DNA of 64,000 bases from an uncultured Actinomycetes bacterium. GTDB taxonomy: Bacteria > Actinomycetota > UBA4738 > HRBIN12. This document shows positions 27,466 to 44,226 of this stretch, piece after piece (within the stretch, counting starts at the first letter, position 1; every line of letters starts with the position of its first letter). The notes under the pieces are model-generated. The model searched no databases, had not been told where the DNA came from, and worked only from the letters and a program-made list of their open reading frames with translations. The stretch spans positions 475,709 to 539,708 of the forward strand of contig CAWCXU010000013.1 of the NCBI GenBank assembly GCA_963799625.1, written 5' to 3'. The translations under genes and the position numbers were made by a program.

Positions 27466-28149
27466 TCACGACGCGTCGGCAACCCATCGGTACCCAACGC
27501 CCGGCTCGGTGACGATCAACGCCGGGGCCGAGGCGTCGTCGCCGAGCTTGCGCCGGAGCGCGCGGACGTAGGTGCGCAGGTACGTGGTCTCGGTGCCGTA
27601 CCCCTGCCCCCAGACGCGTCGCAGCAGCCACTGGTGGGTGAGCAGCTTGCCCGGGTTCGTCACCAGGACTTCGAGCAGGCCGTACTCGGTCGGCGTCAGG
27701 TGGACCTGCTCCCCGTCGATCGTCACGAGCTGCTTGGCGAGGTCCACCTGAAGCGCCCCGAAGACGAGGAGTGGGGCGTCGGGCTCACCCGAACCCTTGC
27801 GCCGCAGGGCTGCGCGTGAACGGGCGAGGAGCTCTTCCATCCCGAACGGCTTGGTGACGTAGTCGTCGGCGCCGGCGTCGAGCGCGGCGACCTTGTCGCT
27901 CTGCCCCTCGCGGACCGACAGGACGATGATCGGGACCTCGGAGAAGGCGCGCACCCGGGTGATCACCTCGGTGCCGTCCATGTCGGGCAGGCCGAGGTCG
28001 AGCAGGATCAGCTCGGGGTGCTGGCTCGCGGCGGCGACCACGCCCTCGTCGCCGGTCCCCACGGTCTCGACGACGTAGCCGTGCGCCTCCAGGCTCGTGC
28101 GGAGCGCGCGGCGGATCTGCGGCTCGTCGTCGACCACCAGCACCTTCAC
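27466..28149 (-). CDS. OmpR/KdpE-family response regulator (RR1)
   Basis: VKVLVVDDEPQIRRAL...LILLDLGLPDMDG...DAGADDYVTKPF; winged-helix C-terminus (LTPTEYGLLEVL...GVGYRW). GTG start overlaps the HK1 stop (GTGA). Confidence 0.85.
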   Translation of the reverse strand: MKVLVVDDEPQIRRALRTSLEAHGYVVETVGTGDEGVVAAASQHPELILLDLGLPDMDGTEVITRVRAFSEVPIIVLSVREGQSDKVAALDAGADDYVTKPFGMEELLARSRAALRRKGSGEPDAPLLVFGALQVDLAKQLVTIDGEQVHLTPTEYGLLEVLVTNPGKLLTHQWLLRRVWGQGYGTETTYLRTYVRALRRKLGDDASAPALIVTEPGVGYRWVADAS

Positions 28150-29627
28150 GCAGCCTCCTCCTCGATCGGCAGGTCCAGGACCAGGGCGGTCCCGCCGCCG
28201 GCGGTCTCCTCCACCCAGATCCGGCCGCCGTGCGCGGTCACGACGGCCCGCGCGATCGACAGTCCGAGCCCGCTGCCGGGCCGTTCGGGCTCCTCGCGGC
28301 CACGATAGAAGGGTTCGAACACCTTCTCGCGTTGCGCGAGAGGGATGCCCGGGCCTTCGTCGGCGACCCGCACGCGCACGGACGCGCCCTCGCGCGACAG
28401 GTGGATCCGGACGGTCCCGTTCGGCGGCGAGTGGCGCGCGGCGTTCTCCACGAGGTTGGTGAGCACCTGATCGAGCTGCATCGGGTCGGCCGCGATCTCC
28501 GGGAGCTCGTCGGGCACCTGCAGCTCCACCCGCACGCGCTCGAGCTGGGGCCGCATCCGCGCCACCACCGCGCCGGCGACCTCCTCGACGTCGGTCGGCA
28601 CGCGACGCGGGATCAACGCGCCGGCGCGGATCCGGGCGAGATCCAGGATGTTGCCCACCAGCCGGTTCAGGCGATCGGTCTCCTCGAGGATCGTCGTGAG
28701 GAGCTCGCGCTGCTGCGTCGCGTCGTGCACGGTCGAGGCGTCGAGCAGGCTCGTGACGCCGGCCTTGATGGACGCGAGCGGCGTGCGCAGGTCGTGTGTG
28801 ACCGAGGAGAACATCGCCGCGCGCAGCTGGTTGGTCTCGGCGTCGAGCTGGGCGAGCCGCGCGCGCGCGTCGAGGCGGGCACGGTCCAGCGCCACCGCCG
28901 CCTGGCGCGTCGCCGCCTCCAGGAGCTCGCGCTCGCGCCGCGTGAACGAACGCGCGCGCGCGGGCCGCTCGGTCGTCAGCGTCCCCAAGGGGACCGTCGC
29001 GATCACGACCGGCACGATCTCGGTCGGGCCGCCCAGCTCGGCGCCCTCGCGCCGCGCGATCGCGCTCATCTCCTGCCCGTCGAGCACCACTTGGACGCTG
29101 CAGATCGCCAGCCCGAACGGATCCAGCAACAGCGCGACGAACTCGTCGAGCACCCGATCGGGGACGTCGCCGGACAAGAGCTTGCTCGACAGGAGCGCGA
29201 GCAACCGGGCCTCGCGCTCGCGCTCGGTGGCCCGGCGCCGCTCCGCCGCGGCGTTCCCGACCACCAGACCCACCACAGCGGCGATCGCGAGGAACACCAC
29301 CGAGGCGATCACGTCGCGGAGTTGCTCGAACTGGAACCCGTTCGCGGGCTGCTCGATCCACGGCAGGGCCACCGATGACAGCAGCGCCGTCACGATCCCC
29401 GCCCAGATGCCGCCGCTGACCGCCGCGATCGTGACGGCGAGCATGAAGATCGCGACCCCCGCCCCGGGCCCGAGATCCCTGGTCAGGGCCACCAAAACGG
29501 CGCCGCACAGGGCCGCGCCGACCCCGATCGCGAGGGCGCGCGCCGAGATCTGGTCCACCCGCGGTTCCCTGCGATCCATCGCCACGACGGACACGCTACC
29601 GCCTCTATCTGCGCGATCCGGGCGCAT
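28146..29627 (-). CDS. KdpD-type sensor kinase lacking the N-terminal KdpD/Usp domains (DUF4118-like 4-TM + GAF + HisKA + HATPase_c), HK1
   Basis: Four TM helices then ...SSVTHDLRTPLASIKAG (H-box), N-box NLVENAARHSP, and DEGPGIP, GSGLGLSIARAVVTAHGG. Confidence 0.85.
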   Translation of the reverse strand: MRPDRADRGGSVSVVAMDRREPRVDQISARALAIGVGAALCGAVLVALTRDLGPGAGVAIFMLAVTIAAVSGGIWAGIVTALLSSVALPWIEQPANGFQFEQLRDVIASVVFLAIAAVVGLVVGNAAAERRRATEREREARLLALLSSKLLSGDVPDRVLDEFVALLLDPFGLAICSVQVVLDGQEMSAIARREGAELGGPTEIVPVVIATVPLGTLTTERPARARSFTRRERELLEAATRQAAVALDRARLDARARLAQLDAETNQLRAAMFSSVTHDLRTPLASIKAGVTSLLDASTVHDATQQRELLTTILEETDRLNRLVGNILDLARIRAGALIPRRVPTDVEEVAGAVVARMRPQLERVRVELQVPDELPEIAADPMQLDQVLTNLVENAARHSPPNGTVRIHLSREGASVRVRVADEGPGIPLAQREKVFEPFYRGREEPERPGSGLGLSIARAVVTAHGGRIWVEETAGGGTALVLDLPIEEEAA

Positions 29628-29654
29628 CCGGGGCGGGCCGGAGGGGAGAGGTCG

Positions 29655-29703
29655 TTCACGTTTTCTTCACGCGCCCTCGGGCATCCTTCACGCCCCGCTC
29701 ACG
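29655..29703. promoter_or_regulatory. Phased hexamer direct repeats TTCACG (x3) + CTCACG at 29655, 29666, 29687, 29698 (spacings 11/21/11 bp). Candidate OmpR/KdpE-type response-regulator box in the HK1/trkA divergent intergenic region.
   Basis: Read directly: cgTTCACGttttcTTCACGcgccctcgggcatccTTCACGccccgCTCACGct. The helical-turn phasing is typical of winged-helix RR tandem sites. Lies 28-76 bp upstream of the HK1 ORF start. Confidence 0.35.
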
Positions 29704-29917
29704 CTCATGCGACGACGCTTAGCGGCGGAAAGAGGGTCTCGTTGACCCCGGTGTCGGACCGTCACCCCCGGCACCGGTCGATGCGAGACGGAACACGAAC
29801 GAACCCACTTTCCTCCGAGCCCGTCTGCGGGGCCGGCAGCTCCCTCCAGCTGTCGGCCCGCAGGCATATCTGGGGCCGATCACGCCAAGGTCACGAGGCG
29901 GCGCACGCTGTCAGGCG

Positions 29918-30604
29918 GTGCACACGCGGGTACGCTTCCCGGCCATGCGGGTCCTGATCATGGGATGCGGTCGGGTCGGTTCCGAGCTCTCCCACGCGCT
30001 CGGCGACGCCGGTCACGAGGTCACGGTGATCGACAAACGCGCCGAGGCGTTCGATCGCTATCCCCCCGGCGAGCACGCGCGCACGATCGTCGGTCTCGGG
30101 TTCGACCGCGACGTGCTCGAGGAGGCCGGGATCCGCGAGGCCGATGCGTTCATCGCGGTCTCGAGCGGCGACAACTCCAACATCGTGTCGGCGCGCGTCG
30201 CGCTCGAGCACTACCACGTGCCCAAGGTGATCGCGCGGATCTTCGACCCGCGGCGCGCCGAGATCTACGAGCGGCTCAACATCCCGACGGTCGCGACGAC
30301 CACGTGGGGCGTGAAGCAGTTCCAGCTGATGCTGCTGCACACCGGCAAGGAGGTGCGCGAGAGCCTCGGCGGCGGCGAACTCCTGCGGGTGCGCGTCCCG
30401 GTGCCGAGCCACCTGGTCGGCAAGCCGGTGTCGACGTTGAACGTCGACGGGCACATCCTCGTCGCCGGCGTGTCGCGCGGCGGCAAGGGGTTCATCCCGT
30501 CGATCGACAGCACGCTGCAGGAGGGCGACTTCCTGATCGTCACGATGGGCAAGGACTACATGGACGAACTCGACACATTGCTCGAGCCGACGGAGCACCG
30601 CTGA
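29918..30604 (+). CDS. trkA: TrkA/CeoB-like K+ uptake regulatory protein (RCK/KTN NAD-binding N domain + TrkA_C)
   Basis: MRVLIMGCGRVGSELSHAL (GxGxxG Rossmann) ...C-terminal TrkA_C (LLRVRVPVPSHLVGKPVSTLNVDGHILVAGVSRGG). Stop overlaps the next trkA start (TGATG). Confidence 0.85.
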   Translation: MHTRVRFPAMRVLIMGCGRVGSELSHALGDAGHEVTVIDKRAEAFDRYPPGEHARTIVGLGFDRDVLEEAGIREADAFIAVSSGDNSNIVSARVALEHYHVPKVIARIFDPRRAEIYERLNIPTVATTTWGVKQFQLMLLHTGKEVRESLGGGELLRVRVPVPSHLVGKPVSTLNVDGHILVAGVSRGGKGFIPSIDSTLQEGDFLIVTMGKDYMDELDTLLEPTEHR

Positions 30605-31269
30605 TGCGGGTCGTGGTGACCGGGGGCGGCGCGATCGGACGCCACGTCGCAGGCGACCTCAGCACGCGCGGCCACGACGTCACGCTGATCGAGCAGGACA
30701 AGCAGACCGTCGAGGACCTCCGCGAGGAGATCCCCGAGGTGACGATCATGCTCGGCGACGCGTGCGAGCCGTGGGTGCTCGACGACGCGGAGCTCGCCCG
30801 CGCCGACGTGGTGGTCGCCGCTACCGGCGATGACGAGGACAACCTGGTCACGTCGCTGCTCGCCAAGCAGGAGTTCGCCGTGCCGAGGGTGCTCGCGCGC
30901 GTCAACCACCCGAAGAACGAGTGGCTCTTCACCGATCAGTGGGGTGTCGACACCGCCGTCTCGCCGCCCCACATGCTGACGTCGATGGTGGAGGAGGCCG
31001 TCACGACGGGCGACCTGGTGCAGCTCCTGCGGCTCGAGGGCGGCCAGATCTCGATCGTCGAGATGAAGCTCGCCGCCGACTCGCCGGCCGTCGGCAGGCC
31101 GATCTACGAGCTCCGCCTGCCCAACGACGCCGCGATCGTCGCGATCGTGCGCGACGCGCACGTCGTGATCCCGCAGCCCGAGACCGTGCTCGGCGGCGGC
31201 GACGAGCTGGTGGCGCTCGCCGCGATCGGGACCGAGCAGGCGCTTCGGGCCGCGATCGTCGGCGACTGA
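30604..31269 (+). CDS. trkA: Second TrkA/CeoC-like K+ uptake regulatory protein
   Basis: MRVVVTGGGAIGRHVAGDL...TrkA_C (ISIVEMKLAADSPAVGRPIYELRLPNDAAIVAIVRD). Confidence 0.85.
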   Translation: MRVVVTGGGAIGRHVAGDLSTRGHDVTLIEQDKQTVEDLREEIPEVTIMLGDACEPWVLDDAELARADVVVAATGDDEDNLVTSLLAKQEFAVPRVLARVNHPKNEWLFTDQWGVDTAVSPPHMLTSMVEEAVTTGDLVQLLRLEGGQISIVEMKLAADSPAVGRPIYELRLPNDAAIVAIVRDAHVVIPQPETVLGGGDELVALAAIGTEQALRAAIVGD

Positions 31270-31282
31270 GGCGGTCCGCCGC

Positions 31283-31975
31283 TCAGCCGCTCGGCTCGAC
31301 CTGCCAGCGATACCCGATCCGTGACTCGGTCACGATCGCGCGTGGGTGCCGCGGGTCGGGTTCGATCTTGCGCCGGAGCTGACTGACGAAGACCCGGAGC
31401 GCCTCGACGTCGGGGGCGCCGTCGGCGTCCCACACCTCGGCCAGCAGCCAGTCGTGCGTGCGGAGCACGCCCGGCGCGGTGGCGAGCGCCTCCAGCAGGC
31501 GCCACTCGGTCGGCGTCAGGTGGACCTGGTCCTCGCCGCGCCGCACGGATCGCGCGCCCAGGTCGATCCGGATGTCGTCGACCTCGAACCGGGTGCCGCT
31601 CGGCTCGGGCGCCGCCCGCCGCAGGAGCGCCCGTACCCGGGCCAGGAGCTCGGCAGCGCCGAACGGCTTCGTCAGGTAGTCGTCGGCGCCGAGGTCGAGC
31701 GCGGCGACCTTGTCCTGCTCGGCGTCGCGCACCGACAGCACGAGGATCGGCACCGAGCTGAACCGCCGGATCTCCCGGCAGGCGGTGAGCCCGTCGACGT
31801 GCGGCAGGTTGAGATCGAGCACGACCAGGTCGGGCTCGCGGTCGCGGACCGCGCCGACCGCGGCGCGCCCGTCGGTCGCCGTCGCGACGCGGAAGTCGCG
31901 GGCGAGCAGCGTCCGCTCCACCGCGCGGAGGATCTGGGGCTCGTCGTCGACGACGAGGATCAACGGGTCGCTCAT
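31283..31975 (-). CDS. OmpR/KdpE-family response regulator (RR2)
   Basis: MSDPLILVVDDEPQILRAV...LVVLDLNLPHVDG...winged helix LTPTEWRLLEAL...IGYRW. ATG overlaps the HK2 stop (ATGA). Confidence 0.85.
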   Translation of the reverse strand: MSDPLILVVDDEPQILRAVERTLLARDFRVATATDGRAAVGAVRDREPDLVVLDLNLPHVDGLTACREIRRFSSVPILVLSVRDAEQDKVAALDLGADDYLTKPFGAAELLARVRALLRRAAPEPSGTRFEVDDIRIDLGARSVRRGEDQVHLTPTEWRLLEALATAPGVLRTHDWLLAEVWDADGAPDVEALRVFVSQLRRKIEPDPRHPRAIVTESRIGYRWQVEPSG

Positions 31976-33360
31976 GCCGCCGGGAGCCGGAACCCCATCG
32001 TCGTTCCCCCGCCCGGGGTGTCGGTCGCCCAGATCTCGCCGCCCATCGCGGTGACGAAGCCCTTGCAGATCGCGAGACCGAGCCCGGCACTCAGGCGCGG
32101 CGACCCTTCCTGCAGCTTGTAGAACGGTGTGAAGAGCAGCTGCTGGTCGCCGAACGCGAGGCCGGGCCCGTGGTCGACCACCTGCACGACGACCACGCCG
32201 TCCGCCCGCTCCGCGGCGAGCTCGATCCGCCGGTCGGCGGCGCCCCGCACGGCGCGCGCCGCGTTCTCCACGAGGTTGGTGACGACCCGCTCCACGAACA
32301 GCTCGTCGCCCCGGACGCGGACGGCGTCGTCGGCGACCCGCACGTCGATCTCGACGCCCGGCCAGCGCTCGCGCACGCCGTCGACCGCCGGACCGACGAG
32401 ATCGTCCAGATCGACGAGGTCGGCGTGGGCCACGAGCGTGCCCGACTCGATCCGGGACATGTCGAGCAGGTTCGTGATCAGCTGCGCGAGCCGCCCGGCC
32501 GACGCGCGAACGTCCTCGAGCACGACCCGGGCGCTCTCGGGGTCGAACGTCTCGCGGTCGAGGATGTCGGTGACCGACGCGGTGATGGCGGCGATCGGGC
32601 TCTTCAGCTCGTGCGAGGCGGCCGCCAGCAACGATCGCCGCATGTCCTCGGTCCGCTTGTACAGCTCGGCCTCGCGGAGCTCCTGCTCCAGCCGCTCGGC
32701 CTGCACCACCAGCGCGACCTCGTCGGCGAACGTGCGGACGACACGGGTCTCGGCGGCCGTCAACGCCGGGCGATCCCCGACGAAGACCAACGAACCGACC
32801 CGCGCCGGGCCGACCCGCAGCGGGAACGCGGTCGCCGAGGAGGCGGCCGGATCGTCCTCGTCGCGGACCGAGGCCAGGACGAACCCGAGGCGTTCGGCCG
32901 CGCGACCGAGCGCCGGGGTAAGGCCCTCCGCCCGCTCGGACACCAGCACGTGGCTCAGATCGAACAGCAGCCGGACCTCCGCCTCGCGGTCCTCGGCCGC
33001 GGTCGCGCGCTCGTGCGCGACGCCCACCAGCCACGAGATCAACAGCGACATCGCGATGAACGCGAAGAACGCGACGACGTACTCGGTCCGCTCGAGGTCG
33101 AAGGTGCCGTAGGGGGGGAGGAACCCGACGTTGTACAGCGCCGACCCGACGATCGCGGCGACGATGCCGGGGACCACCCCACCGAGCCACGACGCCACCA
33201 CCACCGGCACGAGGAACGCGAACGCCGTCAGGGTGTGCGACAGCTGCACCCGGAAGGGCTCCATCACGGCGGCGATCGCGAGGGGGCCGAGCGTGGCGAC
33301 GAGGTAGGCGGCGCCGAGCAGCCACGAGGGCCTGCGGACGCCCAGCACACGCGTCGACAC
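31972..33360 (-). CDS. KdpD-type transmitter-only sensor kinase HK2 (4-TM + GAF + HisKA + HATPase_c)
   Basis: TM block ...NVGFLPPYGTFDLERTEYVVAFFAFIAMSLLIS (DUF4118-like FLPPY motif), H-box AAASHELKSPIAAITAS, HATPase motifs. GTG start at 33360 preferred. An alternative ATG at 33465 would overlap the divergent permease gene. Confidence 0.8.
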   Translation of the reverse strand: MSTRVLGVRRPSWLLGAAYLVATLGPLAIAAVMEPFRVQLSHTLTAFAFLVPVVVASWLGGVVPGIVAAIVGSALYNVGFLPPYGTFDLERTEYVVAFFAFIAMSLLISWLVGVAHERATAAEDREAEVRLLFDLSHVLVSERAEGLTPALGRAAERLGFVLASVRDEDDPAASSATAFPLRVGPARVGSLVFVGDRPALTAAETRVVRTFADEVALVVQAERLEQELREAELYKRTEDMRRSLLAAASHELKSPIAAITASVTDILDRETFDPESARVVLEDVRASAGRLAQLITNLLDMSRIESGTLVAHADLVDLDDLVGPAVDGVRERWPGVEIDVRVADDAVRVRGDELFVERVVTNLVENAARAVRGAADRRIELAAERADGVVVVQVVDHGPGLAFGDQQLLFTPFYKLQEGSPRLSAGLGLAICKGFVTAMGGEIWATDTPGGGTTMGFRLPAA

Positions 33361-33398
33361 GGCCGCGGTCCGATCCACGCTCGCAACGATAGTCGCCC

Positions 33399-33418
33399 TT
33401 ACGGAACCCTTATCCCGC
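33399..33418. promoter_or_regulatory. 20-mer TTACGGAACCCTTATCCCGC: two half-sites (TTACGG / TTATCC) 11 bp apart, in the HK2 / kimA-like-2 divergent intergenic region. 17/20 identical to a motif upstream of kdpF.
   Basis: Direct sequence comparison with 38151..38170 (TTACGGATCCCGTATGCCGC). Confidence 0.35.
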
Positions 33419-33437
33419 GCTTCTAGCGTGGACCGTG

Positions 33438-35891
33438 ATGCAGACCGACGACGCACCTCCCGCAACGTCCGCGGCGCCCGAGGCCGCGAGCCCTCCCTCC
33501 CGGCCGGCCGCGCGCCCGCCCTTGCCCCGGAGCTCGAGCTACGGGGTCAAGCGGGCGTTCCTCGGACCGGCGCTCCCGACCGCTCACCTGGTGCACGAGC
33601 GGCTCGGCAAGATCGCCGCGCTCGCGATCTTCAGCTCGGACGCGCTCTCCTCGGTCGCCTACGCCACCGAGGAGATGCTGAAGACCCTGGTGATCGCCGG
33701 GGTCGGCGTGCTCGCGTTCTCGCTGATCGTGCCGTTGTCGGGGGCGATCGTGGCCGTCCTCGCGATCCTCGTCTTCAGCTATCGGCAGACGATCAAGGCC
33801 TACCCGTCGGCGGGCGGCGCCTACATCGTCACGAAGGACAACTTCGGACTGATCCCAGCCCAGGTGGCCGGCGTCGCGCTGCTGACGGATTACGTGCTGA
33901 CCGTCGCGGTGTCGGTGTCCGCCGGCGTCGCGGCGATCATCGCGCTCGTGCCGGTGACCGCGCCGTTCCGCGTCGAGATGGCCGTCGCGTCGATCGCCCT
34001 GATCGCCTACGGCAACCTCCGGGGCGTCCGGGAGTCCGGGAAGATCTTCGCGGCGCCGACCTACGTGTTCATCGGGTGCATCATGTCGCTGCTCATCGTC
34101 GGGGTCGTGCGCGCGGCGACCGGGTCGCTCGCCGTGCCGCCGCCGGTCACGACAGGCGGCGCGCTGTCGGCCTTCGCGCTCGTCCCCGCGTTCGTCGCGT
34201 TGCACGCGCTGGCATCGGGCAGCACGGCGATGACGGGCGTGGAGGCGATCTCGAACGGCGTGCCGGCCTTCAAGCCCGTCGAATGGAAGCACGCGAGGCA
34301 GACGCTCGTCGCGCTCGGGCTGCTTCTGGCCACGATGTTCATGGGGATCTCGTGGCTCGCCGCGAAGCTCCAGGTCGCGCCGGACTTCACCGGGCGCTCG
34401 ACGGTGGTCGCCGACATCGGCAAGGCGGTCTACGGCACGAGCCCGCTCGGGCACGCCGCCTTCGCCCTGCTGCAGATCGCGACGGCGCTGATCCTCGTGC
34501 TCGCGGCCAACACGGCCTACGCCGACTTCCCACGTCTGGCGAACTTCCACGCCGGGGACGACTTCTTGCCGCGGCAGTTCACGACGCGCGGGCACCGGCT
34601 CGTGTTCTCGAACGGGATCTTGGCGCTGTCGGCGGCCGCGATGCTGCTGGTCGTCCTGTTCCGCGCCGACGTGACGCGGCTGATCCCGTTCTACGCGATC
34701 GGGGTGTTCACCTCGTTCACGCTGTCGCAGGCGGGGATGGCCAAGCGGCACCTCAGGCTTCGCGAGGAAGGGTGGCGGGTCGGCCTCGCGATCAACGGGG
34801 TCGGCGCCGTCGCGACGGGGGTCGTGCTCGCGATCGTGGCCCGGACGAAGTTCGCCGAGGGCGCCTGGGTGATCTTGATCCTCGTGCCGGTGATGGTTGT
34901 CCTGCTGGTGCGGATGAACCACCAGTACGAGCGCGAGAAGAGGGAGCTCGAACGGGACCTGAAGGCGTTCACGCCGCCGACCAGCCGGCCCCCGATCACG
35001 ATCTTGCTCGTCGAGGACCTCGACCCCAAGACCGTGCACGCGTTGCAGTACGCCCGGACGATCCGCTCCGAGCGGACGATCGCCGTGCACGTCGAGGAGG
35101 ACCGCGCGCGCACGCAGGCGCTCGAGGCCGCGTGGCAGACCGCCGGACTCGACGCGATCCCGCTGCGGATCGTGCGCGGCCGCGGCGACGAGGCGGCGCG
35201 CCTCGCCGGCTTCCTCGCGGCCTACGAGCGTGAGGACCGGGACGCGATCGTGATCGTGCCCGTCCCTCACGAACGGACGTTGCGCGAGCACGTCGCCGAC
35301 CGGCGCGCAGGCGCGCGGCTGCACCGCGCGCTCCTGTCCTACGGTCATGTGCGGGTCACCATGGTCCGCGACCACCCCGACGGCGTGCACCCCTTGCAGC
35401 GTGACGAGGACGGGCGACCGGTCGTGCGCCTCACCGCCCGGCAGACGCACGACGTCGTCGTGTTGGTCGACAAGCTCGACCGAGCGACGCTGCAGGCCGT
35501 CGCGTACGCGCTCGGGCTCGGCACGCGGTCGGTCCGCGCGGTCCACGCCGCCGTCGACCCCGATCGGGCAACCCGCCTCGCGGAGCGGTGGTCGGAGCTG
35601 CGTGCACCCGTCCCTCTCGACGTGATCGAGTGCTGGGACCGGGACGTGCCCCGCGCGGTCGAGCGCTACGTCGTCGGCATGGCGTCGGAGGGCACCGAGG
35701 TGACGGTCGTCATGCCCCGGCGCGACTACCCGCGCCTGCGCCAGCGGCTCCTGCACGACCGCACGAGCCGGAAGATCGAGCGGGCGCTCGGGCGCTACGC
35801 GCACATCGACGTCGCGGACATCCCGTACTACGTCCGGGGCGTGCCCGAGCCGATCGACGCGCGGGCCGAGGACGTCCTCGAGCCCGTCTGA
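33438..35891 (+). CDS. KimA-family K+ transporter homologue 2 (818 aa) with extended C-terminal cytoplasmic domain
   Basis: Same signature blocks as the paralogue (SSDALSSVAYATEEML, SYRQTIKAYPSAGGAYIVTKDNFG, MTGVEAISNGVPAFKP, LAANTAYADFPRLA, GVFTSFTLSQAGM) plus C-terminal ITILLVEDLDPKTVHALQYARTIRSERTIAVHVEED. Stop abuts the stop of the convergent kdpE-like gene. Confidence 0.75.
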   Translation: MQTDDAPPATSAAPEAASPPSRPAARPPLPRSSSYGVKRAFLGPALPTAHLVHERLGKIAALAIFSSDALSSVAYATEEMLKTLVIAGVGVLAFSLIVPLSGAIVAVLAILVFSYRQTIKAYPSAGGAYIVTKDNFGLIPAQVAGVALLTDYVLTVAVSVSAGVAAIIALVPVTAPFRVEMAVASIALIAYGNLRGVRESGKIFAAPTYVFIGCIMSLLIVGVVRAATGSLAVPPPVTTGGALSAFALVPAFVALHALASGSTAMTGVEAISNGVPAFKPVEWKHARQTLVALGLLLATMFMGISWLAAKLQVAPDFTGRSTVVADIGKAVYGTSPLGHAAFALLQIATALILVLAANTAYADFPRLANFHAGDDFLPRQFTTRGHRLVFSNGILALSAAAMLLVVLFRADVTRLIPFYAIGVFTSFTLSQAGMAKRHLRLREEGWRVGLAINGVGAVATGVVLAIVARTKFAEGAWVILILVPVMVVLLVRMNHQYEREKRELERDLKAFTPPTSRPPITILLVEDLDPKTVHALQYARTIRSERTIAVHVEEDRARTQALEAAWQTAGLDAIPLRIVRGRGDEAARLAGFLAAYEREDRDAIVIVPVPHERTLREHVADRRAGARLHRALLSYGHVRVTMVRDHPDGVHPLQRDEDGRPVVRLTARQTHDVVVLVDKLDRATLQAVAYALGLGTRSVRAVHAAVDPDRATRLAERWSELRAPVPLDVIECWDRDVPRAVERYVVGMASEGTEVTVVMPRRDYPRLRQRLLHDRTSRKIERALGRYAHIDVADIPYYVRGVPEPIDARAEDVLEPV

Positions 35892-36591
35892 TCACGCGTC
35901 GCCGGCCGGATCCTCGCTCCAGCGGTACCCGATCCCCGGCTCGGTGACGATCGCCCGCGGGCGCCGCGGATCGGGCTCGATCTTGCGCCGGAGCTGGCTG
36001 ACGAACACGCGAAGCACCTCGACGTCCTCGCCGTACGGGTCCCCCCAAACGCGTTCGAGCAGCCACCGGTGGGTGAGCAGCTTCCCGGGGTGGGCCGTGA
36101 GCGCCTCCAGCAGCGCCCACTCCGTCTTGGTGAGATGCACGTCGCCGTCACCCCGCGTGACGCGGTGCGCCTGCATGTCGATCGACACGCCGTCGAGCCG
36201 GTACCGCGCCGTCCCGTCGGCGGGGGCCCCCTCGCCCCGGCGCAGCAGCGCGCGGACGCGCGCGAGCAGCTCCCCCGTGCCGAACGGCTTCGTCAGGTAG
36301 TCGTCGGCCCCGAGGTCCAGCGCGGCGATCTTGTCGGGCTCCTCGTCGCGCACCGACAGCACGATGATCGGCACGCTGCTCCACGCGCGGATCCGCCGGC
36401 AGAACTCGAGCCCGTCGAGCACCGGCATGTTGAGATCGAGGACCACGAGATCAGGTGGCGACGCCGCCGCGAGGTCGAGTGCCAACAGCGCCGTCGGGGG
36501 CGAGCTCGACCGCATAGTCTCGCGCGACGAGCGATCGTTCGATCGCCTCGCGGATCTGCGGCTCGTCGTCGACCACGAGGATCTTCGTCAC
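35892..36591 (-). pseudogene. kdpE: KdpE-like OmpR-family response regulator (RR3) with a frameshift near 36503. Possible pseudogene or assembly indel.
   Basis: N-terminus VTKILVVDDEPQIREAIERSLVARDYAVELAPDG in one frame. The remainder (ALLALDLAAASPPDLVVLDLNMP...winged helix...GIGYRW) is in the frame of ORF 35892..36515(-). A 2-nt loss in a gcgc context fits. GTG start overlaps the kdpD3 stop (GTGA). Confidence 0.7.
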
Positions 36592-38087
36592 GAGGCCTCC
36601 TGCAACGAGAAGGCGAAGGTCGCGCCCCCGCCAGGGGTGTCCTCGAGCCAGATCTCCCCGCCCATCAGATCGACGAACCCCCGCGCGATCGCGAGCCCGA
36701 GGCCGGAGCCGAGTTTCGTCGTCCGCTCGTCGAGCCGGGCGAAGGGCAGGAACAGCTGGGTGCGCTCCCGCGTGGTGAGTCCCGCCCCGTGGTCGACGAC
36801 CTTGACCGCCACCTGGGCGCGCCGTTGCCCGTGGTCGGTCGGACCGATCTCGATCTCCACCGACGGGCTGCCGGCGGCCACGGCCGACCGCGCCGCGTTG
36901 TCCAGGAGGTTCGACACCACCCGGGGGAAGAAGACCGGGTCGGCGACCGCGACCTCGTGCCCGTCGTCGATCGCCATGGCGATGTGCACGTCGGGCCAGC
37001 GCAGCGCCGCCGCGTCGACCTCGGCCGTGACGGTCTCCGCGAGATCGACGTGCTCGAGGTGCGCCTGCACGACGCCGGCCTCGATCCGCGACAGGTCCAG
37101 GAGGTTCGCGACGAGCGCGTCGAGCCGGTCGGCCTCGCTGTCGACCACGTGCAGGACGGCCGCACGCTCCGCCGTCGAGCGCTCCACCTCGGGATCGAGC
37201 AGATCGGTGACCGACGCCTTGATCGCCGCCAGGGGGCTCCGGAGGTCGTGCGAGACCGCGGCGAGCATCGTTCGGCGCGCCGTCTCGGTCTGCCGGAGGA
37301 TCTCGGCGTCGGTCGCGGTGCGCAGCAGCCGGTCGCGCTCGAGCACCAGCGCGAGCTGGTCACAGACCGCACGCAGCACCCGCACCTCCGCGGGGTCCAG
37401 CGCGGGCCGCGACCCGGTGAGCACGATCAGGCCCAGCGTTCGGTTGCCGACCGACAACGGCAGCCGTTGCGGCGCGCGTCCCGGGTCGGCCGGGTTCCAC
37501 GACGGGCTGATCGACCCGGCCGGAGCGCCGACGACCACCCGCTCGTCGAGCCCACCCTCGGCGCCGCTCACGAACAGGGCGCCCGCGTCGAATCCGAACC
37601 GCGTGACGACGTCGCCGAGCAGCGCGCCGTACATCTCCTCTCCCGGACCCCGCACCACGAGGTCGCGGCTCAGCTCCTGCAGCGTCTGCAGCTCGCGCTC
37701 CTTCGCCTCGGCGACCTCCGCCCGCTCCACCGCACGGGAGTAGAGCGAGGAGATCAGCACCGACAACGCGAGGAACACGACGAGCGCGACCACGTGCTCG
37801 CCCCGTGCGATCACGAACGAGTCGTACGGCGGCAGGAAGAAGAAGTTGAACGTCAGGAACGACACGACCGCCGCGAGCAACCCCGGTCCCAGCCGCCCGA
37901 CGATCGCCGCGGCGACCACGACGACCAGGAAGGTGAAACCGATCGTGAGCGGCTGCAAGGTGTCGCGGAACGGGAGGAACACGAGCACGACAGCCGCCGG
38001 ACCGGCGACCGCGATGAGGTACCCGATCGCGCGAAGACGTCCTCTCGGCGCCGCGCGGAGCAGCGCGAGGGTGCGTGCGGTGCGCAT
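36588..38087 (-). CDS. kdpD: KdpD-type transmitter-only sensor kinase HK3, divergent from kdpFABC
   Basis: FLTFNFFFLPPYDSFVIARGEHVVALVVFLALSV (DUF4118 signature), GAF-like middle, H-box AAVSHDLRSPLAAIKAS, HATPase (LLDNAARSAV, DHGAGL, GSGLGLAIARGFVDLMGG). Confidence 0.85.
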   Translation of the reverse strand: MRTARTLALLRAAPRGRLRAIGYLIAVAGPAAVVLVFLPFRDTLQPLTIGFTFLVVVVAAAIVGRLGPGLLAAVVSFLTFNFFFLPPYDSFVIARGEHVVALVVFLALSVLISSLYSRAVERAEVAEAKERELQTLQELSRDLVVRGPGEEMYGALLGDVVTRFGFDAGALFVSGAEGGLDERVVVGAPAGSISPSWNPADPGRAPQRLPLSVGNRTLGLIVLTGSRPALDPAEVRVLRAVCDQLALVLERDRLLRTATDAEILRQTETARRTMLAAVSHDLRSPLAAIKASVTDLLDPEVERSTAERAAVLHVVDSEADRLDALVANLLDLSRIEAGVVQAHLEHVDLAETVTAEVDAAALRWPDVHIAMAIDDGHEVAVADPVFFPRVVSNLLDNAARSAVAAGSPSVEIEIGPTDHGQRRAQVAVKVVDHGAGLTTRERTQLFLPFARLDERTTKLGSGLGLAIARGFVDLMGGEIWLEDTPGGGATFAFSLQEAS

Positions 38088-38150
38088 GGTCGAAGGATAG
38101 CCAGCGCGGCAACGACGCTCGACCGTCCGGACCGCCCGCGGACGAGACCT

Positions 38151-38170
38151 TTACGGATCCCGTATGCCGC
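38151..38170. promoter_or_regulatory. 20-mer TTACGGATCCCGTATGCCGC in the kdpD3 / kdpF divergent intergenic region. Conserved with 33399..33418. A further TCACGG hexamer lies about 25 bp downstream.
   Basis: Read directly; 17/20 identity to the HK2-permease2 intergenic motif. Confidence 0.35.
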
Positions 38171-38234
38171 ACGCGTCGTTCCTCACGGTTGCCTGATGTC
38201 CGCTGACTACGGTCGGGGCCAGGAGGTGAGGACC

Positions 38235-38318
38235 GTGTGGGATCTCTGGGTCGGCGTCATCACCGCGGTGTTCTTCGTGGTGGCCTTCGCCCTCGTCCGC
38301 TGGTTCGACGCGATATGA
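38235..38318 (+). CDS. Small hydrophobic leader peptide (27 aa, single TM) preceding kdpF/kdpA
   Basis: AGGAGG then GTG..., VWDLWVGVITAVFFVVAFALVRWFDAI*. Stop overlaps the next small ORF (ATGA). Confidence 0.4.
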   Translation: MWDLWVGVITAVFFVVAFALVRWFDAI

Positions 38319-38403
38319 ACATCGCCGATGCGCTCGAGCTCGCGCTCGCGCTCGCGCTGCTCGTCTATCTCGTGTACGTGTTGATCCGCCCGGAGCGATT
38401 CTG
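38314..38403 (+). CDS. kdpF: KdpF-like K+-transporting ATPase small subunit (29 aa)
   Basis: MNIADALELALALALLVYLVYVLIRPERF*. The LVYLVYVLI core resembles KdpF (…LGYLVYALI…). Its TGA overlaps the kdpA ATG. Confidence 0.55.
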
Positions 38404-40073
38404 ATGGGCACGATCGTCGTCTACACGCTCCTGTTGATCGTGCTGACGCCGCCGCTGGGCGCCTACCTGTACCGCGTCTACACGAGCGAGCGCACCGGCC
38501 GGATCGAGGGCGTCTTCTATCGGGTGCTCGGCGTGAACCCCGACGCCGAGCAATCGTGGCGCCGGTACGCGACGGCGGTCCTGTGGTTCAGCGTGATCAG
38601 CATGGTGTTCGTCTACCTCGTGCTGCGGTGGCAACAGCATCTACCGCTGAACCCCGAAGGCTTCGCGGGCGTGAACCCGTACCTGTCGTTCAACACCGCC
38701 GCGAGCTTCATGACCAACACGAACTGGCAGTCCTACGGCGGCGAGACGACGATGAGCTACCTCTCCCAGATGCTCGCGCTGACGTTCCAGAACTTCGTGT
38801 CGGCCGCGGTGGGCATCGCGGTCGTGATCGCGATGATCCGCGGGTTCACGCGCGCCGGCACCGACAACGTCGGGAACTTCTGGCGCGACCTCGTGCGCGG
38901 CGTCGTCTACGTCCTGTTGCCGATGTCCGTGCTGGTCGCGATCGTCCTCATGAGCCAGGGTGTCGTGCAGACCCTCAGCCCCTCCGCGTCGGTCACCGGG
39001 ATCCAGGGGTTCGCGCAGGTGATCGCGCGCGGTCCGGTCGCGAGCCAGATCGCGATCAAGCAGCTCGGCACGAACGGCGGCGGGTTCTTCAACGTGAACT
39101 CGGCGCACCCGTTCGAGAACGCGACGCCGATCTCGAACTTCGTCGAGGCGTTCGCGATCCTGTGGATCGCCGCGGCGCTGACCTACACGTTCGGCAAGAT
39201 GGTCGGCAACGTCCGCCAGGGCTGGGTGCTGTTCGGCGTGATGTGGATCCTGCTGGTCGCCGGTCTGGCGCTCACCGTCCCCGGCGAGCGGACCGCCACC
39301 CCCGCGATGCAAGCGGCGGGCGTCGCCGGCAGACCGCGCCCAACCTCGAGGGCAAGGAGGTGCGCTTCGGACCCGACGCGTCGTCGCTGTGGTCGGTCGC
39401 CACCACCGACGCCTCGAACGGGAGCGTCAACTCGATGCTCGACTCGTACCAGCCGCTCGGCGGGCTCGCGCCGATGTTCAACATCGCGATCGGCGAGGTG
39501 ATCTTCGGCGGGGTCGGCAGCGGGCTGTACGGGATGATCTTCTACGTCGTGATCGCCGTGTTCATCGGCGGGCTGATGGTCGGCCGCACCCCCGAGTACC
39601 TCGGCAAGAAGATCGGCGCGCGCCAGGTCAAGATCGTCGTGATCGCCGTGCTCGTGCCGTTCCTGGTGGCGCTCGCGTTCACGGCGTTGGCGGTGGTGAC
39701 ACCGTCGGGCCTGGCCGGGCCGCTCAACACCGGCCCTCACGGGTTCAGCGAGATCTTCTACGCGTACCTGTCGCAGGGGAACAACAACGGTTCGGCGTTC
39801 GCGGGGCTCACCGCGAGCTCGCCGTACTACACGATCACCGGCGGCATCGCGATGCTCGTCGCCCGCTTCGTGCCGCTGATCGCGGCGCTCGCGCTCGGCG
39901 CGAGCGTGGGCAGGGAGCGCACCGTGCCGTTCACGGCGGGGACGCTGCGGACCGACACGGGACTGTTCGCCGGCCTGCTGACCGGCGTGATCGTGATCAT
40001 CGGCGCCTTGACGTTCCTGCCCGGGCTCGCCCTCGGTCCGATCGTCGAGCACCTGCAGAAGGGGCTGAGCTGA
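38404..40073 (+). pseudogene. kdpA: KdpA (K+-transporting ATPase subunit A) with a -1 frameshift near 39330. Possible pseudogene or assembly indel.
   Basis: N-terminal 300 aa (MGTIVVYTLLLIVLTPPLGAYLYRVY...) are in ORF 38404..39501. The remainder (NLEGKEVRFGPDASSLWSVATTDASNGSVNSMLDSYQPLGG...EVIFGGVGSGLYGM...) is in the frame of ORF 38556..40073. The junction …AGVAG|QTAPNLEGKE aligns with KdpA if one c is restored in gccggc(c)agacc. Confidence 0.8.
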
Positions 40074-40074
40074 G

Positions 40075-42142
40075 ATGTCGGTGACCGCCCCGCCGCAGAC
40101 AGCGCCCACCACGCAGACGACGATCCGCTCGCGTCCCTTGTTCGACGGACCGATCGTGCGTCAGGCGATCGTCGACAGCTTCACGAAGCTGAACCCGCGC
40201 ACGCTCCTGCGCAACCCGGTGATCTTCGTCGTCGAGGTCGTGTCCATGGTGGTCACGATCCGGATCGTCGCCGACGCCGTCAACGGCGGTGCGGTCGCGT
40301 TCGACACCGCGATCGGACTCGGGCTGTGGTTCACGGTGCTGTTCGCGAACTTCGCCGAGGCGATGGCGGAAGGGCGCGGCAAGGCGCAGGCCGAGACCCT
40401 GCGGCGCACCCGCGCCGACCTCGTGGCCCGGCGGCTCACCGCCGACGGCACCGAGGAGACCGTGCAGGCGTCCGACCTGCGCGCCGGCGACGTCGTGATG
40501 GTGTCGGCCGGCGAGCTGATCCCGGGCGACGGCGAGATCGTCGAAGGGATCGCGTCGGTCGACGAGTCGGCGATCACCGGCGAGTCGGCCCCCGTGATCC
40601 GGGAGTCCGGCGGCGACCGCTCGGCCGTGACCGGCGGCACCAAGGTGCTCTCGGACTGGATCAAGGTCCGGATCACGGCCGAGCCCGGCGAGGGCTTCAT
40701 CGACCGGATGATCCGGCTCGTCGAAGGCGCCGAGCGCCAGAAGACGCCGAACGAGATCGCGCTGTCGCTCCTGCTCGTGAAGTTCACGATCATCTTCCTG
40801 ATGGTGATCGTGGCCCTCCAGCCGTTCGCCATCTACGCGGGCAACCGCGTGAGCGACGCCGTGCTGATCGCCCTGTTCGTGTGCCTGATCCCGACCACGA
40901 TCGGGGGCCTGCTGTCCGCGATCGGGATCGCCGGGATGGACCGGCTCGTCCAGCGCAACGTGCTCGCGATGAGCGGCCGCGCGGTCGAGGCCGCCGGCGA
41001 CGTGTCCGCGCTGCTGCTCGACAAGACCGGCACGATCACCCTCGGGAACCGGCAGGCGGTGGCGTTCCTCCCGGCGCCCGGCGTCGACGAGCGGCGAGCT
41101 CGCCGAGGTCGCGCAGATGGCCTCGCTCGCCGACGAGACCCCCGAGGGTCGCTCGATCGTCGTGCTCGCGAAGGAGCGCTTCAACCTGCGCGAGCACGAC
41201 TTCATGGAGGCCCACGCCGAGTTCGTCCCGTTCACCGCGCAGACGCGGATGAGCGGCGTGAACCTCAACGGCAGCGAGATCCGCAAGGGCGCCGTCGACG
41301 CGATCCGCGGCTGGTCCGGGCGGGACCTGCCGCCCGAGCTCGACGAGGCGGTCGAGCGCATCTCGCGCGCGGGCGGCACACCGCTCGCGGTCGCGAAGGA
41401 CCACGTCCCGATGGGGGTCGTCGAGCTCAAGGACATCATCAAGGACGGACTGGTCGAGCGGTTCGACCAGCTGCGGCGGATGGGGATCCGCACGGTGATG
41501 ATCACCGGCGACAACCCGCTGACCGCGGCCGCGATCGCGCAGGAGTCCGGTGTCGACGATTTCCTCGCCGAGGCGACGCCCGAGACCAAGATGGCGCTGA
41601 TCCGCAAGGAGCAGGAGGGCGGCGTGCTCGTCGCGATGACCGGCGACGGCACGAACGACGCCCCCGCGCTCGCGCAGGCGGACGTCGGGGTCGCGATGAA
41701 CACCGGCACGTCGGCGGCGAAGGAGGCCGGCAACATGGTCGACCTCGACTCGAACCCCACGAAGCTGATGGACATCGTCGAGATCGGCAAGCAGCTGCTG
41801 ATCACCCGTGGCGCGCTCACAACCTTCTCGATCGCGAACGACGTCGCGAAGTACTTCGCGATCATCCCGGCGATGTTCGTGACGACGTATCCGGCCCTCG
41901 ATCGGTTGAACGTGATGCACCTGACCTCGCCGCAGTCCGCGATCTTGTCGGCGGTGATCTTCAACGCGCTGATCATCGTGGCGCTCGTGCCGCTCGCGCT
42001 CCGCGGCGTGCGCTACCGGCCGGTCGGCGCCGAGGGTCTGCTGCGCCGCAACCTGCTGATCTACGGTCTCGGCGGGATCATCGTGCCCTTCATCGGCATC
42101 AAGCTGATCGACATGTTCCTCGGGCTGGTGCATTTCCCGTGA
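40075..42142 (+). pseudogene. kdpB: KdpB (P-type ATPase catalytic subunit) with a frameshift near 41092. Possible pseudogene or assembly indel.
   Basis: N-terminus through [24 protein letters not shown] is in the frame of ORF 40075... The C-terminus ([29 protein letters not shown]...[22 protein letters not shown]...[25 protein letters not shown]...) is in ORF 41117..42142. The 4-nt stretch cggc between the frames indicates a +1/-2 indel. Confidence 0.8.
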
Positions 42143-42726
42143 TCCGCACGATCGTCCGCGCGCTGCTCGCCACGCTCGTGCTCGCGGCCCTGACGGGGAT
42201 CGCGTACCCGCTGGTGATGACCGGGATCGGCCAGGTTGCGTTCGCCCACGACGTGAACGGCTCGCTCGTCGACGTCAACGGTCAACCGGTCGGCAGCTCG
42301 CTCATCGGACAGACCTGGAACGGCCCGGAGTGGTTCTACGGGCGACCGTCGGCGGTCGGCGACGACGCGTCGACGTCGTCGGGCTCGAACCTCGGGCCTC
42401 GGTCCCAACAGCTCGCCGACGACATCGAGACGCAGGCGCGCCAGATCCTCAAGATCGAGTCGCCCTACACACCCGGCCTCACGACGGCCAGCATCCCGGT
42501 CGACCTGGTGACCTCCTCGGGCAGCGGCCTCGACCCCGATATCTCGGTCGCCGCCGCCCGGTTCCAAGCGCCGCGGATCGCGGCCGTTCGCGGGCTCCCG
42601 CTCGACCAGGTGCTGAGCCTGATCGACGCGCACACCGCCCACGAGACCCTCGGGTTCCTCGGAGAGCCGCGGGTGAACGTCCTGGAGCTCAACCTCGCGC
42701 TGCAGGGGGTGGCGCCACGAGCGTGA
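42139..42726 (+). CDS. kdpC: KdpC (K+-transporting ATPase subunit C)
   Basis: [35 protein letters not shown]...[25 protein letters not shown] (KdpC signature). GTG overlaps the kdpB stop (GTGA). Confidence 0.8.
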
Positions 42727-43038
42727 CCACCGCCCTGCAGCGCACCGTCCTCGTGATGGGACGCCACGTCACGGAGCCACCACGGCTCTACCCGGGCGAC
42801 GTCGCCGGGTCGATGGCCGTCGTCGTGATCACGGTCGGGTGGCCGGTCACGTCGGCCCAGTCGATGGCGGTCGAACAAGCGCTCGAACTCGCGCGCGAGC
42901 GTCGCGTCGCGTTCGACGCGTTCCTGGTCGGCTCGATCACCGAGGGACTCGAGGTGGTCGACACCCGTGACCGGGTGCTGTTCGCCGGCGACCGACGCGA
43001 GGGGAAACGGATCGTGCGCGGCCTCGGCCCGCGCGGGA

Positions 43039-44226
43039 TCACCGCGCGCGCTGCGCGATGACGTGGATGTCGACGTTCGCGGCCTGCCTGATCAGCTCGG
43101 TGACGAACGATCCCCGCAGGATCTCCTTCCACCGCGAGCGGCGTGATTCCCCGACCACGAGCTGCGTGACGTACTGGGTGTAGGCGACGTTCAGCACGCC
43201 CGCGACCGGGTCCTCGTCGTCGATCACGAGGAGCTCTCCGCCGAGGTCGGCCACCAGTTGCTTGAGCTCGACGAGCCACGCGGTCGCCTCGGGCTCGTGC
43301 CGCTCGCGCGCGTGGACCACGAGGAAGTCGCCTCGGGCCCGCTGGGCGATCCGCGCGCCGCGCCGCACGAGGTCGTCGGCGGAGTCCGGCTCGCCGACGC
43401 AGACCAGGACGCGTTCGCGGGTCTCGGGCGTGCGCCCCTTCGACCATCGCGACAGGAGCGTCTCGTCGACCTGGTTCGCGACCCGCATCAGCGCCAGTTC
43501 GCGGAGCGCCGTCAGGTTGTCGGTCGTGAAGTAGCGCTGCAGCGCGAGCTCCGCTTTCGCGGGATCGGGGTAGACGTTGCCGTGCAGCATCCGACGTCGC
43601 AGGGCGTGCGGCGACATGTCGACGAGCTCGATCTGGTCGGCCAGCTCGACCACCCAATCGGGAACCGTCTCGCGCTGCTGCACCCCGGTCACGTCGGCGA
43701 CGACGTCGTTCAGGCTCTCGAGATGCTGGATGTTGACCGTGGTGATGACCTCGATCCGTGCCGCCAGCAGGTCGATCACGTCCTCCCAGCGCTTGCCGCG
43801 CCGGGCGCCCGGGACGTTCGTATGCGCGAGCTCGTCGACGAGCGCGATCTCGGGCTGGCGCTGTACCACCGCGTCGGTGTCCATCTCGTCGAAGATGGCG
43901 CCGCGGTACTCGATCGTGCGCTCGGCGACGGTCTCGAGGCCTTGGAGCATCTCGAGCGTGCGTGGCCGGCCGTAGGTCTCGACGCACGCGACGACGACCC
44001 GGCTTCCGCGCTCGGCGCGACGACGCCCCTCCGACAGCATCGCGTAGGTCTTGCCGACACCGGGCGCGGCGCCGAGGTAGATCCGAAGCGGCGCCGACTT
44101 GGCCGCGCGCGCCTCGCTCCGGTTCCACTGCGGCGGCGCCGACGGCTCCGCGACGACCGTATGCCCGATCAGGGCCTCGACCGACTCCACTCCCCGCTCT
44201 GGCCCGCGCTCGGCGCTCGTCGCCAT
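43039..44226 (-). CDS. Stand-alone KdpD N-terminal sensor domain protein (KdpD_N P-loop domain + Usp domain), no TM or transmitter domains
   Basis: RIYLGAAPGVGKTYAMLSEGRRRAERG (KdpD Walker A) ...VITTVNIQHLESLNDVV..., then Usp-like ERVLVCVGEPDSADDLVRRGARIAQ...LLVIDDEDPVAGVLNVAYTQYVTQLVVG. Convergent with kdpC. The overlapping ORF 42788..44128(-) is an R/G-rich artefact. Confidence 0.85.
   Translation of the reverse strand: MATSAERGPERGVESVEALIGHTVVAEPSAPPQWNRSEARAAKSAPLRIYLGAAPGVGKTYAMLSEGRRRAERGSRVVVACVETYGRPRTLEMLQGLETVAERTIEYRGAIFDEMDTDAVVQRQPEIALVDELAHTNVPGARRGKRWEDVIDLLAARIEVITTVNIQHLESLNDVVADVTGVQQRETVPDWVVELADQIELVDMSPHALRRRMLHGNVYPDPAKAELALQRYFTTDNLTALRELALMRVANQVDETLLSRWSKGRTPETRERVLVCVGEPDSADDLVRRGARIAQRARGDFLVVHARERHEPEATAWLVELKQLVADLGGELLVIDDEDPVAGVLNVAYTQYVTQLVVGESRRSRWKEILRGSFVTELIRQAANVDIHVIAQRAR

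Follow-up and report, generated by a model that had tools for sequence, protein, structure and literature searches.

Two 20-mers in a stretch of 64,000 nucleotides from an uncultured actinobacterium (contig CAWCXU010000013.1; the whole stretch is called the window here) are most likely operators for response regulators of the KdpE family, that is, for winged-helix regulators of the OmpR/PhoB type. The first 20-mer lies in the spacer between the genes for the kinase HK2 and a KimA-like K+ transporter (KimA-like permease 2, or KimA-like-2), the second in the spacer between the gene for the kinase HK3 and the kdp operon. Both elements are conserved in orthologous promoters, both are built from 6-bp direct repeats in an 11-bp phase, and the class of their half-sites follows the recognition helix of the adjacent regulator. 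This is a known type of control element, here in an uncultured actinobacterial lineage. For the comparative analyses we used 154 related loci (L numbers below), 80 of them from species-representative genomes, 71 from JGI metagenomes and 3 obtained by exact-protein look-up; the genomes most closely related are metagenome assemblies of uncultured Actinomycetota. Open reading frames (ORFs) were chosen by third-position GC and named by Pfam and NCBIfam.

The 20-mers TTACGGAACCCTTATCCCGC (33399-33418) and TTACGGATCCCGTATGCCGC (38151-38170) are identical at 17 of 20 positions, as a sequence-only reading of the window had claimed, and no 20-nt stretches of the two spacers (65 and 148 nt compared, both strands) match better without gaps. 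After 500 shuffles of both spacers, the best match comprised 16 identities (mean 13.0) and none reached 17. A degenerate consensus of the 20-mers, with up to three mismatches allowed, occurs at these two places only in the 64 kb, where 0.03 occurrences would be expected (window G+C content 70.5%). Thus, the similarity lies beyond background. The same reading had placed two half-sites 11 bp apart in each 20-mer. The 11-bp phasing is correct, and the register that fits the comparative data begins one base further left, giving the dyads CTTACG-N5-CTTATC (33398-33414) and TTTACG-N5-CGTATG (38150-38166). Direct repeats at 11 bp are the signature of OmpR/PhoB-type regulators, and both dyads have the form of such an operator, with at least two direct repeats of about 6 bp spaced 11 bp centre to centre. 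Two classes of operators, A and B, are distinguished below by their half-sites. The operators and predicted -10 boxes of the locus are as follows:

56-bp spacer between HK2 and KimA-like permease 2: contains the first 20-mer
33398-33414, plus strand: class B dyad CTTACG-GAACC-CTTATC, found in 11 orthologous promoters and in L152-L154, second-ranking matrix match
33425-33430, plus strand: predicted -10 box TAGCGT of KimA-like-2, CTA..GT invariant in the 11-promoter alignment
33386-33391, minus strand: predicted -10 box TATCGT of the HK2-RR2 operon, read from the sequence, geometry conserved among orthologues
148-bp spacer between HK3 and the small ORF/kdpF: contains the second 20-mer
38150-38166, plus strand: distal class B dyad TTTACG-GATCC-CGTATG, whose half-sites are conserved across 12 kdp promoters, top matrix match in the window
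38182-38198, plus strand: class B proximal dyad CTCACG-GTTGC-CTGATG, from the kdp alignment, third-ranking matrix match in the window
38208-38213, plus strand: predicted -10 box TACGGT of the kdp operon, TA...T invariant in 12 promoters
38094-38099, minus strand: predicted -10 box TATCCT of HK3-RR3, AGGATAG conserved in the kdp spacers of relatives
29655-29703, plus strand: class A operator, three TTCACG and one CTCACG, in the HK1/trkA spacer, conserved in close relatives

The dyad at 33398 is the sole operator dyad of the 56-bp bidirectional promoter between HK2 and KimA-like-2. When 11 orthologous permease-2 promoters (68-100% protein identity) were aligned, three blocks were invariant, namely CCTTA.G, CC..A 11 bp further on and CTA..GT, with variable spacers between them. 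All of these promoters have one layout: 7 nt from the GTG of the divergent kinase gene lies its -10 box (plus strand ACGATA or CCTTAG), followed by 6-8 nt, the dyad CTTACG-N5-CTTAYN, 9 nt, TA(C/G)(C/G)GT, 5-8 nt and the start codon. In the window, the predicted -10 box at 33425 begins 9 nt past the dyad, and since GTG 33435 or ATG 33438 comes directly after it, the KimA-like-2 mRNA is probably leaderless. On the opposite strand, the HK2-RR2 -10 box is separated from the dyad by 6 nt and precedes the GTG start at 33378 by 7 nt. Both divergent genes look leaderless. Relatives at ~75-79% protein identity carry the perfect repeat CTTACG-GTTCC-CTTACG, and we therefore regard the second half-site of the window as a degenerate copy. 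A second dyad, looked for 32 nt upstream of 33398, is absent; the HK2 coding start occupies that sequence.

The kdp promoter is organized differently, with four half-sites rather than one dyad. An alignment of 12 kdp promoters, reaching down to 46% KdpA identity, shows them conserved, with an invariant A at columns 13, 24, 45 and 56, and an invariant TA...T follows 9-10 nt past the fourth half-site. Because this alignment shows four half-sites, the second 20-mer is, by comparative sequence, the distal dyad of a kdp operator with four conserved half-sites. Its window half-sites are TTTACG at 38150, CGTATG at 38161, CTCACG at 38182 and CTGATG at 38193 (offsets 0/11/32/43), and the proximal dyad ends 9 nt upstream of the -10 box TACGGT. 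A conserved gap of 9 nt to a predicted TAnnnT -10 box follows both the permease dyad and the proximal dyad at kdp. With a predicted transcription start near 38220, 7 nt past TACGGT, the distal dyad would span about -70 to -54. The HK3-RR3 -10 box stands 6 nt ahead of ATG 38087, a leaderless arrangement. No sigma-70-type -35/-10 pair was found in a scan of 29500-38400, which fits activator-dependent promoters. A terminator scan of the same interval returned only two terminator-like matches, both inside HK3. Conservation in orthologous promoters, which the sequence-only reading had named as a way to check its claim, was hence found for both sites, against diverging flanks, in 11 permease-2 and 12 kdp promoters and also in L152-L154.

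Weight matrices, built only from other genomes with the window left out, recovered the same sites. On both strands of the window, the leading score, 25.3 bits, was that of 38150 and the next, 23.0 bits, that of 33398, versus a maximum of 20.9 bits in shuffled windows; the third match was the proximal kdp dyad. Each promoter type predicted the other: a matrix from kdp promoters only ranked the permease site second (20.7 bits versus a shuffled maximum of 18.5), and one from permease promoters only ranked the kdp site second (20.5 versus 16.9). In ~1.95 Mb of related loci, 26 of the 28 matches scoring at least 17 bits were located upstream of kdp or of a gene for a KimA-like permease; 24 of those matches fell into HK2|permease or HK3|kdp spacers, and some were absent from the training set. 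The resulting class B consensus is CTTACGGnTCCC(G/T)TAnG, in which the spacer-terminal CCC is nearly invariant.

The sequence-only reading had assigned the same organisation to TTCACG repeats at 29655, and had proposed one shared element at all three promoters. As to organisation, these repeats are indeed direct repeats with an 11-bp phase: the half-sites at 29655, 29666 and 29687 (TTCACG) and 29698 (CTCACG) have offsets of 0/11/32/43, and the four-site arrangement scores 19/20 against TTNACG. The 80 genome loci contain such a four-site architecture 46 times, each time upstream of trkA or, in most cases, of a KimA-like gene, and close relatives have the operator in the HK1|trkA spacer. A single motif that includes 29655 does not hold, as scoring with class A and class B matrices revealed:

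29655 dyad: class A 22.6, class B 14.5
29687 dyad: class A 19.6, class B 4.4
33398 site: class A 2.2, class B 23.0
38150 site: class A 7.6, class B 25.3

By these scores there are two operator classes, B (half-sites CTTACG and nnTAnG, with CCC at the spacer end) at the KimA-like-2 and kdp promoters and A (four TTCACG-type half-sites) in the HK1/trkA spacer. The proteins encoded next to them fall apart in the same manner:

27466-28140, minus strand: RR1, KdpE-like regulator, helix TETTYLRTYVRALRRK
28146-29585, minus strand: HK1, kinase (DUF4118-HisKA-HATPase), start GTG 29585
31283-31969, minus strand: RR2, KdpE-like regulator of the OmpR family, helix PDVEALRVFVSQLRRK
31972-33378, minus strand: HK2, kinase resembling the C-terminal half of KdpD (DUF4118-HisKA-HATPase), KdpD C-terminal half as best NCBIfam match
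35892-36591, minus strand: RR3, kdp-linked KdpE orthologue, helix EDVEVLRVFVSQLRRK, frameshifted near 36496-36500
36588-38087, minus strand: HK3, C-terminal half of a split KdpD (DUF4118-GAF-HisKA-HATPase), KdpD C-terminal half as best NCBIfam match

RR2 and all kdp-linked RR3 orthologues have the helix core LRVFVSQLRRK in common. The RR1 helix differs (LRTYVRALRRK), and RR1-type orthologues with LRTYVRALR(R/K)K stand beside TTCACG operators. RR2 and RR3 are 68% identical, versus 50-54% between either of them and RR1; HK2 and HK3 are 42% identical, versus 31% to HK1. KdpE is the best NCBIfam match of all three regulators, and RR3, the one regulator searched against solved structures, matched E. 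coli KdpE best (4KNY, E 3e-54). The KdpE DNA-contact residues R193, R200 and T215 (PMC3264566) align as conserved in RR1-3, so that each operator adjoins a KdpE-family regulator that has kept them. Operator class thus tracks the helix type of the adjacent regulator. The RR2 and RR3 sites would be alike because both regulators have the same recognition helix and select the same half-site. Assigning operators to the nearest regulator was tried and rejected: it called the 29655 site an RR2 site and was confounded by distance and orientation, and operon order was used instead.

The idea of a shared element therefore stands for 33399 and 38151, where the matrices predict each other's sites and the regulators have a common helix, and fails for 29655. 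Cross-regulation, which had been suggested for all three paralogues, is plausible for RR2 and RR3 only, since the class split follows the proteins. Our results partly support the earlier interpretation, which was right in kind (shared regulator operators at K+ promoters) and wrong in detail (two classes rather than one).

The elements resemble mapped KdpE sites. In E. coli, the kdpFABC site is TTTATA-N5-TTTACA at -72 to -50, according to PMC3264566, which cites Sugiura 1992 for it. Like the window dyads it comprises a pair of 6-bp direct repeats that have 5 bp between them, lies upstream of kdpF at a distance similar to that predicted here, and aligns in register with our matrices, albeit weakly (7-8 bits). 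The contact residues R193, R200 and T215 of E. coli KdpE are all present in RR1-3 of the window. In contrast to E. coli, the kdp half-sites of the window (TTTACG, CGTATG) are GC-richer, a second, promoter-proximal dyad is conserved to give four half-sites, KdpD is divided between two proteins, a kinase and a non-kinase sensor, and the kinase-regulator genes are divergent from kdpFABC instead of downstream of it. To our knowledge, the only footprinted actinobacterial KdpE site is that of Mycobacterium smegmatis. PMC5401905 describes it as a 22-mer, CCGTAAAGAAACCATCAAGGCC, defined by DNase footprinting and gel shift, with one dyad, which its authors considered A-rich and unlike other KdpE sites; the kdp transcript is reported there with a 120-nt leader and a promoter with SigF-type -10 and -35 elements. 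Read on the other strand, however, the site is an ordinary direct repeat: its reverse complement, GGCC-TTGATG-GTTTC-TTTACG-G, falls in register with our matrices at 14-16 bits, has the same repeat structure and contains the TTTACG(G) half-site that is also present in the window.

Two further systems are instructive. In class II activation by PhoB, the pho box replaces the -35 element ~10 bp upstream of the -10 box, and its repeats are usually described as 7 bp with a 4-bp spacer. The permease and proximal kdp dyads would be PhoB-like in that they end 9 nt before a predicted -10 box, without a -35-like hexamer. Unlike a pho box, the single permease dyad lies between two predicted -10 boxes ~30 bp apart and would serve two divergent leaderless promoters. 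In Bacillus subtilis, kimA (ydaO) is controlled by a riboswitch for cyclic di-AMP (c-di-AMP). The window gene regulated here is likewise a KimA homologue, as judged by its match to the B. subtilis KimA structure (6S3K, E 7e-105), which identifies permease 2 as a true member of that family. Unlike in B. subtilis, there is no riboswitch in the 56-bp spacer, where Rfam finds nothing, and control seems to be of the KdpDE two-component type. In the literature searched, we found nothing relevant on kimA-like genes under KdpE control or on a Streptomyces KdpE regulon.

Other explanations for the likeness of the two sites were weighed against an operator function. The 20-mer pair was chosen post hoc out of a 64-kb window, as a chance likeness of two GC-rich spacers would require, but the shuffles, the conservation in orthologous promoters and the cross-prediction by matrices that exclude the window make the probability of chance negligible, and we rejected it. 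The conserved blocks might instead be core promoter elements, for example the -35 region of an alternative sigma factor. The dyad does overlap the -35 region of the permease promoter, and the SigF-type promoter described for M. smegmatis kdp in PMC5401905 provides a precedent. However, the conserved positions recur at 11-bp phase two or four times, the distal kdp dyad would lie ~55-70 nt upstream of the predicted start, too far for a -35 element, and the half-site class follows the helix of the adjacent regulator; we consider core promoter elements very improbable. The sites could also be bound by an unlinked factor, for example a global regulator of K+ or osmotic functions, in place of the neighbouring regulators, given that these were assigned by sequence alone and that our view covers 64 kb of the genome. 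Yet the sites always occur in the spacer adjoining a kinase-regulator operon, their 11-bp direct repeats are of the OmpR/PhoB type and the motif matches mapped KdpE sites, which renders an unlinked factor very improbable.

A more serious alternative is that the paralogues are insulated, each dyad being used by its own regulator only, and that the likeness goes back to a KdpDE-type system duplicated fairly recently rather than to a shared regulon. The closer relationship of RR2 to RR3 and of HK2 to HK3 than of either to RR1 or HK1 fits such a duplication, and the architectures differ (one dyad versus four half-sites). Furthermore, locus L153 keeps the permease dyad although RR3, HK3, kdpFABC and the N-terminal KdpD gene are all missing from the interval that separates permease 2 from the OB-fold gene (L153:12427-12795), and the gene list of contig P0002 shows no kdp cassette at this locus. 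RR2 would thus be independent of RR3, and since L153 keeps the dyad without a kdp cassette at the locus, RR2 alone appears sufficient to maintain it. On the other side, the recognition helices hardly differ, the matrix from either promoter type finds the site of the other, and no discrimination is visible at the DNA level. In L012 and L084, moreover, both promoters have the same variant second half-site, CGAACG, which hints at a shared constraint rather than independent drift. We give insulated paralogues appreciable, though less than even, weight.

Several observations weigh against reading the 20-mers as KdpE-family operators. In the window, the permease dyad and the distal kdp dyad each have a degenerate second half-site (CTTATC and CGTATG). 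The phase of the proximal kdp dyad is 12 bp instead of 11 in one subclade (L001, L083, L116), where the regulator may therefore make no real contact with the fourth half-site. The four-site arrangement at kdp scores 14/20 against plain TTNACG, equal to a match in a coding region, and the four-site case at kdp therefore rests on the comparative alignment. RR1-3 score 197-239 bits, below the NCBIfam KdpE equivalog cut-off of 325, and every -10 box and transcription start is a sequence prediction. Finally, RR3 (~36496-36500), kdpA (~39298-39303) and kdpB (~41085-41096) carry one frameshift each, which, if real, would mean a decaying kdp module. Sequencing or assembly error is likelier than pseudogenes, because the frameshifts in RR3 and kdpA are located at G5/C5 homopolymer runs, frameshifts occur also in the long-read relatives L001 and L012, and the genes of L152 are intact.

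An operator function for KdpE-family regulators nevertheless accounts best for the two sites, and we propose the following mechanism. As head-to-tail dimers, the regulators would occupy direct repeats of 6 bp at a spacing of 11 bp. HK3, the kinase half of the split KdpD, would phosphorylate RR3, and phosphorylated RR3 would bind the four-half-site kdp operator and probably activate kdpFABC when K+ is scarce. Phosphorylated RR2 would occupy the single 33398 dyad at the -35 position, recruit RNA polymerase and thereby probably activate KimA-like-2. The same bound RR2 dimer would overlap, in reverse orientation, the -35 region of the divergent HK2-RR2 promoter, which could result in autoregulation of either sign. 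RR1 would use the 29655 repeats, with half-site TTCACG, as an equivalent operator. Cross-binding of RR2 and RR3, and with it cross-regulation, is plausible, since their common helix core would permit it at the DNA level.

The surrounding locus encodes further K+ transport functions and associated genes:

25089-27425, minus strand: KimA-like permease 1
29945-31269, plus strand: two trkA genes
33435-35891, plus strand: KimA-like K+ transporter 2, an APC permease (Pfam AA_permease_2; 6S3K) with a ~330-aa C-terminal extension
38235-42726, plus strand: kdp operon, with a small ORF (38235-38318), kdpF (38315-38404), kdpA (38404-40073), kdpB (40075-~42140) and kdpC (to 42726)
43039-44226, minus strand: KdpD N-terminal/Usp non-kinase sensor
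44256-46946, minus strand: OB-fold gene and H+-pyrophosphatase

Permeases 1 and 2 both extend past the KimA-homologous part by a conserved C-terminal region of ~330 aa that has no Pfam match. KdpD is split: HK3 is without the KdpD N-terminal domain, and a separate KdpD-N and Usp protein is encoded at 43039-44226 on the minus strand, opposite to kdp and behind the H+-pyrophosphatase and OB-fold genes, with KdpD-like non-kinase potassium sensor as its best NCBIfam match (369 bits). The small ORF ahead of kdpF is conserved, comprises 27 codons, encodes a hydrophobic product (VWDLWVGVITAVFFVVAFALVRWFDAI) and overlaps kdpF by an ATGA stop/start; equivalents precede kdpF in L001, L012, L009, L016, L053 and L037, and its product may be an extra small Kdp subunit. 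In relatives without the kdp module, permease 2 abuts the OB-fold gene and H+-pyrophosphatase, where the window has 35892-44226. The module behaves as a dispensable cassette of ~8 kb.

In most relatives (L005, L009, L011, L097 and many others), regulator and kinase genes are divergent from a class A operator, KimA-like permease and trkA-trkA in one operon. The lineage of the window is rearranged, with HK1-RR1-permease 1 in one direction and trkA-trkA divergent from it. The pairing of KimA-like and TrkA genes suggests that these TrkA proteins may have the KimA-like permease as their membrane partner.

Between the class A operator and trkA we detected a further conserved element:

29724-29878, plus strand: structured non-coding RNA of ~155 nt

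Copies are present at L001:6292-6447, L012:6277-6429, L002:6194-6348, L015:5176-5328, L152:6312-6462, L153:6336-6489 and L154:6300-6452; in total there are 12 full-length copies and a 5'-truncated one in L084. Indels break any reading frame, which rules out that the stretch is coding. The consensus structure comprises 46 pairs; in the 12-sequence alignment, which was fitted to the model and so favours the structure, compensatory changes occur at 15 pairs, and the share of paired cells is 94.7%. This was matched by none of 500 shuffles, and slid controls gave 2-6 pairs with such changes. The single-sequence fold has a z-score of -3.4, and the unpaired C-rich stretches GUCACCCCC and CUUUCCUCC and the loop CCCUCC are invariant. 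Rfam searches found no match for the trkA leader alone (E<=10) and, for 24-48 kb (E<=1), only a spurious small RNA (sRNA) match inside a coding region; a known riboswitch, including one for c-di-AMP, was therefore rejected as an explanation.

The trkA start is probably ATG 29945 rather than GTG 29918. A -10-like TACGCT lies 8 nt upstream of this ATG and is conserved (TAGATT, TAGGCT or TACCCT in relatives; window 29931-29947). This suggests that trkA mRNA is leaderless from a promoter of its own, apart from the operator-driven upstream RNA, in which case the operator-driven transcript may be a separate or regulatory RNA. We consider the ~155-nt RNA a candidate for a leader or small RNA of a new kind, with a link to K+ uptake. 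Taken further, the locus might form a three-tier K+ circuit of three KdpDE-derived systems, in which RR2 and RR3 would be interchangeable at the DNA and co-control the KimA-like importer and the dispensable Kdp cassette by one operator code, while the RR1 operator would drive no transporter gene directly but the ~155-nt RNA, with its C-rich loops, ahead of leaderless trkA as a new riboregulator (a cis leader or a 6C-like trans sRNA). At present we regard this circuit as doubtful.

An operator beside its own two-component system is, by itself, what specialists would expect. Beyond that, the sites provide an operator code for KdpE-family regulators in high-GC Actinomycetota, comprising the class B consensus and the fourfold TTCACG of class A. 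In addition, our results suggest that the KimA-like and TrkA K+ systems of this lineage are under two-component control rather than that of a Firmicutes-type c-di-AMP riboswitch. With the recognition helix shared by RR2 and RR3, the locus represents a natural case in which to study whether duplicated two-component systems become insulated or engage in cross-talk.

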